Shown here: positions 26,172 to 26,874 of the stretch, in pieces
Layout of the letters: each line of letters starts with the position of its first letter
Position numbering within the stretch: the first letter of the stretch is position 1
Source: a virus
Taxonomy: Duplodnaviria > Heunggongvirae > Uroviricota > Caudoviricetes
IMG/VR virus record: IMGVR_UViG_2718217885_000012
Span: 1-41,649 of that record
DNA: 41,649 nucleotides
Reading direction: 5' to 3' (one strand)
Notes under the pieces: generated by a model
The model's database searches: none
Seen by the model: only the letters and a program-made list of their open reading frames with translations
What the model was told of the DNA's origin: nothing
Made by a program: the position numbers and the translations under genes

Positions 26172-26350
26172 CTTGTTTTCCTCGCACGTTCTCTAAGCCA
26201 CCGGATATCCCACAGGTGAGCCGTGTAGTTGAAGGTTTTTACGTCAGATTCTTTCGGGATTGGCTTGCGTTTATTTCTGGAGCGTTTCGTTGGAAGGTAT
26301 TTGCAGTTTTCGCAGATGATGTCGGTGAAACTTCGTCGCTGTCGCCTCAT
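26168..26350 (-). CDS. ninE: NinE
   Basis: [60 protein letters not shown] matches lambda NinE by recall; internal Met start. Confidence 0.85.
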
Positions 26351-26874
26351 GCCGCCCTCCTGACGCCCTGCCCGATTGCCATCAATGCCGCTTTGGATAC
26401 GGTAGTAAACATCCGTCGAGGACTGATGAACGGTCGCCAAATCAGCAGCATGGAGCCTTTGCTGTTTCCCTTCTTCTCCAGCCCTGTCGATGGTTCGATA
26501 AAATTAATCCGTCCATCAGTGATAATGCGAACTTCGTCGACACTCTCCAGAGCCTTGCTGAACCATCCGACTGACATATCCTCTGGCACAAGCATAACTA
26601 CCGTCTGTCGCTGTTGTATGCACTGCTCAGCGGCTTTTTCCACCCACGGCCTGATATTGCTGTACGGTGGGTTATTCCAGATTGCACCGTGGCTTATCCA
26701 CTCAGAATTGAGTGCGTCGTCGGCCTCAGTTAGCCAGTGAGCACACAGAGCATTTTTGTCGCTCGCTGCCGAATCCAGCCAGAATCCAAACTCAATATCC
26801 AGTGCATCAAAAAGCCAAAGCGGCGTTTGCCAGCAGTCCTTGTCGTGTGCTGGCGTATTTGATTTGATAGTCAT
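26347..26874 (-). CDS. Phage Dam-family DNA N6-adenine methyltransferase
   Basis: NPPY catalytic motif within [16 protein letters not shown]; start overlaps the NinB stop (ATGA); occupies the ninC/ninD position. Confidence 0.75.

Follow-up and report, generated by a model that had tools for sequence, protein, structure and literature searches.

The stretch of DNA analysed here (the window) comprises all 41,649 nucleotides of IMG/VR virus record IMGVR_UViG_2718217885_000012, a tailed phage of the class Caudoviricetes. On its minus strand, between the lambda-type genes ninB and ninE, lies an open reading frame (ORF) at 26347..26874 which encodes a 175-aa protein, to which we refer as window Dam (gene dam). 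The gene and the entire PR operon are oriented leftwards in window coordinates. The surrounding genes carry the Pfam names NinB, NinE, NinF and NinG. A toprim/DnaB-like primase-helicase of 626 aa is encoded farther upstream, and no cognate restriction endonuclease adjoins dam. We are confident that this gene is the common ‘phage Dam’ of lambdoid phages, allelic to VT2-Sakai orf32, and that it encodes a small, orphan, S-adenosylmethionine (AdoMet)-dependent N6-adenine methyltransferase of GATC, most likely expressed in lytic growth; less certainly, the enzyme would top up the GATC methylation of phage DNA.

The window protein matches the Pfam family PF05869 (Dam) with E 8e-65, scoring 218 bits where the cutoff is 28.1 and spanning profile positions 1-167 of 169. 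It also matches TIGR01712, the NCBIfam equivalog for phage N-6-adenine-methyltransferase, with 264.2 bits (cutoff 97.05) over positions 1-165 of 165, and PHROG 111 (phrog_111, DNA methyltransferase; E 9e-88). As the matches to PF05869 and TIGR01712 are full-length, dam is not a chance ORF. Radlinska and Bujnicki (2001) is reportedly the reference that Pfam gives for PF05869. Two alignments were made, the first of 17 sequences (HP1 Dam, T1 Dam and homologues from 13 other sources), the second of 44 sequences including 43 database homologues. Invariant in both, and all retained in window Dam, are N68, P69, P70, Y71 and S72 (the NPPYS of IWNNPPYS, residues 65-72), together with T17, P18, L33, D34, A37, D99, S101, W104, E114, R122, F125 and K139. 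A search of PDB sequences with window Dam returned nothing at E < 0.1 (the best hit was SdiA, E 0.18), and a Foldseek search with its predicted model returned no solved structure below 1e-3. The solved folds closest to the model were PCIF1 and M.TaqI, with 131-145 of the 175 residues aligned, which argues that the modelled protein is essentially a bare catalytic domain lacking a separate target-recognition domain, in keeping with a small single-domain enzyme of the ~170-180 aa class. For window Dam the model predicts a catalytic core pared down to the Rossmann-type fold of an N6-adenine methyltransferase, in which a motif I-like LDSAA precedes NPPY in a gamma-like motif order.

Both junctions of dam with its neighbours are ATGA overlaps (Table 1), the type of junction typical of nin regions (PMC8022706). 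Translational coupling to ninB, which an initial annotation of this DNA had proposed, finds its expected overlap at the upstream junction, and the coupling itself would follow from that arrangement. An alternative, 195-aa reading starts from a GTG at 26934 (26347..26934, minus strand), and the GenBank record of phage Sf101 annotates the methylase from such an upstream GTG (L005, 6034..6621, 588 nt, 195 aa, with a 64-nt overlap with ninB). We rejected this start because the homologues from other genera in our alignments all begin at the ATG position, hence the 175-aa call is the right one. This is of practical value, as the correct annotation is 175 aa from the ATG rather than the 195-aa GTG form found in some records.

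Table 1 Coordinates of dam, its junctions and motifs, and other features of the window
Feature	Position	Strand	Details
dam, 175 aa	26347..26874	minus	ATG 26874-26872, TGA 26349-26347
NPPY, catalytic motif IV	26662..26673	minus	residues 68-71; AAC CCA CCG TAC, window 26673..26662
Motif I-like LDSAA	26764..26778	minus	residues 33-37; presumed AdoMet-binding loop
ATGA overlap, ninB stop (TGA)/dam start (ATG)	26871..26874	minus	
ATGA overlap, dam stop (TGA)/ninE start (ATG)	26347..26350	minus	GGAGG 5 nt upstream, within dam
Shine-Dalgarno (SD)-like GGGGAG	26885..26890	minus	10 nt 5' of dam ATG, inside ninB end; putative, from sequence context
Mosaic cassette, 527 bp	26344..26870	minus	no lambda match (blastn); replaces lambda ninC+ninD, 41085..42096
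ninB (orf), upstream neighbour, 146 aa	26871..27311	minus	PF05772, E 1e-54; DNA 98.5% identical to lambda ninB, 40644..41084
ninE, downstream neighbour, 60 aa	26168..26350	minus	PF05322, E 2e-42; DNA 95.6% identical to lambda ninE
Intrinsic-terminator-like hairpin	27336..27359	minus	8-bp stem, 6 GC pairs, T-run; between primase-helicase gene and ninB
PR-like promoter	30993..31021	minus	TTGACA-17-GAAAAT, 10/12; between cI and cro-like gene; consensus match only
cI-type repressor gene	31069..31701	plus	divergent from PR-like promoter
N-like antiterminator gene	32316..32738	plus	opposite operon
ORFs behind prophage typing	527..2668	minus	
	3293..4294	minus	
	8044..9459	minus	
	39161..40231	plus	
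	40366..41649	plus	

The boundaries of the dam cassette were located by aligning the window with lambda positions 39000-45000 (blastn). Window 27388..26871 corresponds to lambda 40567..41084, which takes in the end of ren and continues to the stop codon of ninB (98.5% identity), window 26343..26006 corresponds to lambda 42097..42434, covering ninE-ninF (95.6%), and window 25742..23500 matches lambda ninG through Q (97.7%). The edges of the cassette are the exact gene boundaries of the ninC+ninD slot. Lambda NinC (phosphoadenosine phosphosulfate (PAPS)-reductase-like) and NinD occupy this same slot between ninB and ninE and are packed just as tightly, yet they share no sequence similarity with window dam by blastn, and the Pfam family of the window protein is Dam rather than a PAPS-reductase family. 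Judged from these comparisons, dam and lambda ninC+ninD are alternative mosaic cassettes. Another insert that lambda lacks lies between ninF and ninG, where lambda homology breaks at 26005/25743. It is a minus-strand ORF of 89 aa at 25739..26008, which runs into the ends of the genes on either side and matches PHROG 1258 (unknown function; E 5e-38), with no match in Pfam or NCBIfam.

Most of what the initial annotation had read from the letters alone agrees with these results. It had placed a 175-aa protein with an NPPY motif at 26347-26874, and the coordinates are exact (the strand, which it left unstated, is minus), with the motif at residues 68-71. Its N6-adenine methyltransferase is borne out by the PF05869 and TIGR01712 matches over the full length, its position between ninB and ninE, where lambda has ninC and ninD, agrees with the blastn edges, and its description as an orphan fits flanking genes that are all nin genes apart from the primase-helicase. 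Loss of catalytic residues on alignment, which it had named as grounds against the assignment, was not seen, all family-invariant residues being present.

Window Dam is identical (100%) to a protein of phage Nil2 and shares 174 of 175 residues with VT2-Sakai orf32 (NP_050531), the sole difference being the conservative substitution I60V, whilst the Phi24B dam product is 100% identical to NP_050531. A translated match at least 99% identical to window Dam was present in 140 phage records, and near-identical DNA spanning ninB-dam-ninE in 426, including HK97, 434, Sf6, SfI, HK140, mEp043 and many Shiga toxin (Stx) phages. Among complete E. coli genomes, 1565 of 5426 (~29%) carry dam at full length and at least 95% DNA identity, with up to five copies per genome, and these genome copies are already annotated ‘phage N-6-adenine-methyltransferase’. 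Some database entries (P0001, P0005, P0011, P0013, P0023 and P0087) have Dam fused to a neighbouring domain or shortened to 105-150 aa. The fusion partners are NinE, NinB, a RusA-like domain (PF05866), PF05269 and PF06530, one Dam+NinE form being 233 aa, and such entries could be frameshifts, alternative mosaic junctions, or artefacts of assembly or gene calling. A text search of the literature for phage N-6-adenine-methyltransferase together with ninB returned no papers. The family of window dam, its near-identical characterised protein, its position and its prevalence are all already known, and the discovery value is small, as the gene, family, position and likely GATC specificity are already in databases and the literature.

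The characterised protein in question is M.EcoVT2Dam. VT2-Sakai orf32 is the only annotated DNA methyltransferase of that phage and is very probably M.EcoVT2Dam, because it is the only methyltransferase recognised there. Two other VT2-Sakai genes were considered and rejected: orf4 is a DUF551 protein without a methyltransferase domain, and orf71 (2806 aa) has LPD/MuF domains only. M.EcoVT2Dam is described as ‘known to target’ 5'-GATC-3' (PMC6602927, citing Radlinska and Bujnicki 2001), and by that second-hand account the test suggested in the initial annotation, expression in a dam- host, was essentially reported in 2001 for a protein 174/175 identical to window Dam (cited in PMC6602927).

More distant relatives point the same way. 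T1 Dam (YP_003925) shares 33% identity with window Dam (E 2e-26) and makes G(m6A)TC in vivo; in a dam- host it keeps T1 DNA DpnI-sensitive, and deletion of T1 dam renders the DNA MboI-sensitive (PMC10470545). HP1 Dam (orf13), cited as such in PMC7556043, shares 38% identity (E 1e-32). The orphan M.Phi93DAM of a lactococcal 936 phage, which has the NPPY motif only, methylates GATC, as shown by single-molecule real-time (SMRT) sequencing of Phi93 virion DNA, and blocks DpnII; its gene adjoins a terminase gene (PMC4190342). Our tblastn search with window Dam found 45 Lactococcus phage homologues, some of which likewise adjoin the terminase gene, and M.Phi93DAM is probably a member of the PF05869/TIGR01712 family. 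GATC specificity appears to be conserved across 30% to 99% identity, and by analogy window Dam would methylate the adenine of GATC.

The layout of the operon suggests when the enzyme is made. The cI, cro-like, O-like and N-like genes are in lambda order, with the cro-type helix-turn-helix (HTH) ORF and the O-like gene on the minus strand, and a PR-like promoter under repressor control, ~4 kb upstream of dam, is the probable source of its transcript. The strong terminator-like hairpin stands where lambda has tR2, in the segment that shares 98.5% identity with lambda 40567..41084, and would be a tR2 equivalent needing N for readthrough. A scan for a private dam promoter found none above background (9 sites in 8.5 kb, where shuffled sequence gives 8.4). 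Because of this layout and the hairpin between the replication genes and ninB, dam is most likely a delayed-early, N-dependent gene of the lytic cycle, transcribed from PR past the tR2-like terminator once PR is derepressed. The lytic-cycle pattern published for Phi24B dam (PMC3342100) agrees with this. The initial annotation had dam expressed early from PR, and its place in the PR operon, the lambda gene order and the PR-like promoter fit that claim.

We propose that the PR transcript would pass the replication genes and then the tR2-like terminator via N antitermination, that Dam would be translated in step with ninB, and that it would be made in lytic growth or induction rather than in the stable lysogen. 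Window Dam would then methylate replicating phage DNA at GATC. In the least certain step, host Dam would lag phage replication and phage Dam would top up GATC methylation, progeny genomes leaving the cell fully methylated, resistant to restriction of the DpnII/MboI type on entering another host and resembling mature ‘self’ DNA to the GATC-methylation readers MutH and SeqA. Host Dam is reported to leave the virion DNA of P22 and lambda undermethylated (PMC8022706). The window itself contains 85 GATC sites against 206 expected from a Markov model and 161 from base composition, making GATC its most depleted 4-bp palindrome. One of these sites, at 26882..26885, falls after the SD-like GGGGAG and ahead of the dam ATG. 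Observed/expected ratios show depletion in VT2-Sakai (0.59) and HP1 (0.63), whilst T1 is much less depleted, with 0.78 by the Markov expectation and 1.26 by base composition. As GATC is depleted despite the presence of dam, selection against the site has not been removed.

What a phage gains from a GATC methylase when the hosts it commonly infects have their own Dam is a question for the whole family, and one unlikely, though not negligible, answer is that in Dam+ hosts the enzyme is a timing device rather than mainly an anti-restriction one. By quickly bringing the hemi- or unmethylated GATC sites of newly replicated phage DNA to full methylation, it would keep MutH from nicking, and SeqA from sequestering, phage DNA that is replicating or recombining, or it would adjust the activity of GATC-sensitive phage promoters; a remoter variant has the enzyme acting on single-stranded DNA or at non-GATC sites at native expression levels. 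If the timing device were true, the placement of dam right after the recombination mediator NinB would be functional and not accidental.

We give little credence to a main role in the lysogen, in which an active enzyme would change or supplement host GATC methylation and so stabilise lysogeny or alter host expression. A screen for proteins expressed in lysogen cultures did recover the Phi24B dam product, and the authors of that study speculated that it could supplement host Dam, which is required for stable 933W lysogeny (PMC3342100). However, quantitative PCR in the same study linked Phi24B dam to the lytic cycle, grouping it with lytic-cycle genes, i.e. those of the induced subpopulation, a pattern that speaks against epigenetic action in the stable lysogen. 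Window dam, moreover, is separated from the repressor-controlled PR-like promoter by the terminator-like hairpin and has no nearby promoter-like site above background, and in a methylome study of Shiga-toxigenic E. coli 99.9% of GATC was methylated with or without extra copies of the gene (PMC6602927). The suggestion in the initial annotation that dam alters the epigenetic state of the lysogen is thus not favoured, given the terminator-like hairpin, the lytic pattern in Phi24B and hosts that are already Dam+.

A methyltransferase with another substrate or specificity than double-stranded GATC DNA (RNA, single-stranded DNA, or a relaxed specificity, possibly with a partner) is very improbable, and keeps a small place here because of the ribosomal RNA (rRNA) precedent of M.EcoGV and M.EcoPA8orf6770P. 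That precedent comes from a different family (MT-A70, with DPPW, encoded near int beside a partner gene), whereas GATC methylation at native expression levels is documented within the family of window Dam, by T1 wild type against the dam deletion in a dam- host and, for its probable member M.Phi93DAM, by SMRT sequencing of Phi93 virion DNA; and a dedicated partner gene is lacking, as lambda has the neighbours NinB and NinE without dam. That dam is an inactive relic carried in the nin mosaic can be set aside almost entirely, for although nin genes are dispensable in the laboratory and shortened or fused variants exist in databases (e.g. the 233-aa Dam+NinE and the 105-150 aa fragments), the window ORF is intact and the same as the commonest alleles, keeps every family-invariant residue including NPPY, has full-length copies of at least 95% DNA identity in over 1500 E. 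coli genomes, and differs by one residue in 175 from a VT2 protein that is reported, at second hand, to be active.

Several points weigh against the reading of window dam as a lytic GATC methylase with a top-up role. The activity of the window copy is argued from its relatives, and the very probable equation of orf32 with M.EcoVT2Dam leans on orf32 being the sole recognisable methyltransferase of VT2-Sakai, together with the reported use of the 2001 paper as the Pfam reference for PF05869. The structural model is only moderately confident at residues 31-70 (predicted local distance difference test, pLDDT, 57-61), and how a 175-aa enzyme without a recognition domain, and with no close solved structure, reads GATC is a question for the whole family. 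The top-up or anti-restriction role in Dam+ enterobacteria is the least certain part, the function of phage Dam enzymes being ‘still not well understood’ (PMC7556043), and methylase carriage has not relaxed GATC avoidance in temperate phages.

Outside the nin region, the window is a P22-like (Lederbergvirus-type) prophage, closest to Sf101. Besides a lambda-type integrase, it carries a tailspike with the P22 head-binding domain, a P22-type antirepressor and an injectosome translocase. After the integrase, a pectinesterase-like ORF runs off the window end, which we assume may be host ybhC next to attB-lambda. The replication module is not lambda O/P, but consists of a 265-aa O-like HTH initiator (29377..30174, minus strand) followed by the 626-aa primase-helicase (27389..29269, minus strand), the latter combining toprim with a DnaB/AAA_25-like part, and the same module is found in Sf101 and mEp043. 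Early-left ORFs at 33069..33539, 33682..34650 (322 aa), 35715..36185 and 31626..32102 (+) gave nothing in Pfam at E up to 0.001, and among the early-left-operon ORFs scanned there was no MT-A70 or other second methyltransferase.

The closest known systems are M.EcoVT2Dam/orf32 and the identical or near-identical genes of Nil2, Phi24B (dam/CM2), HK97, 434, Sf6, SfI, HK140 and mEp043, which share the length, the ninB-dam-ninE position and the ATGA junctions of window dam. The flanking modules are unlike those of VT2, as the prophage in the window is P22-like rather than an Stx phage and its primase-helicase is of the toprim/DnaB type. T1 Dam and HP1 Dam, the founding members of PF05869, share with window Dam the TP of the N-terminal W-x-TP, the LD..A, the NPPYS and conserved C-terminal residues, and all three are orphans in early or replication regions. 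They differ in that both T1 and HP1 dam lie outside any nin region, and window Dam lacks the 45-aa extension at the N terminus and the 14-aa insertion found in T1 Dam.

The relationship to E. coli Dam is of another kind. E. coli Dam, T4 Dam and DpnM are alpha-class enzymes (PF02086, MethyltransfD12) with a DPPY motif and an inserted DNA-recognition domain, whereas window Dam has NPPY, lacks the insert, is ~100 residues shorter and has no match to PF02086, PF05869 being its only match at E up to 0.01. On this comparison it is analogous in predicted function, but not orthologous, to E. coli Dam, and is ‘Dam’ by predicted activity and Pfam name rather than by descent. M.EcoGV and M.EcoPA8orf6770P, like window Dam, are prophage-borne orphans annotated as GATC methylases and may share an Stx prophage with the nin-region enzyme, yet they are MT-A70 proteins with DPPW, encoded near int, which need the partner PNB-2 and prefer 16S rRNA as substrate although annotated GATC-specific (PMC10810198). 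Window Dam, with NPPY, in the nin region and flanked by NinB and NinE, is not of this type, and an identification as M.EcoGV was rejected on the MT-A70 family and DPPW motif of the latter, as was one as M.EcoGIX (specificity SAY), which is plasmid-borne and single-strand-specific. Caution is needed with the shared name, as the nin-region enzyme is distinct from both E. coli-type Dam and the MT-A70 rRNA methylase of Stx phages.
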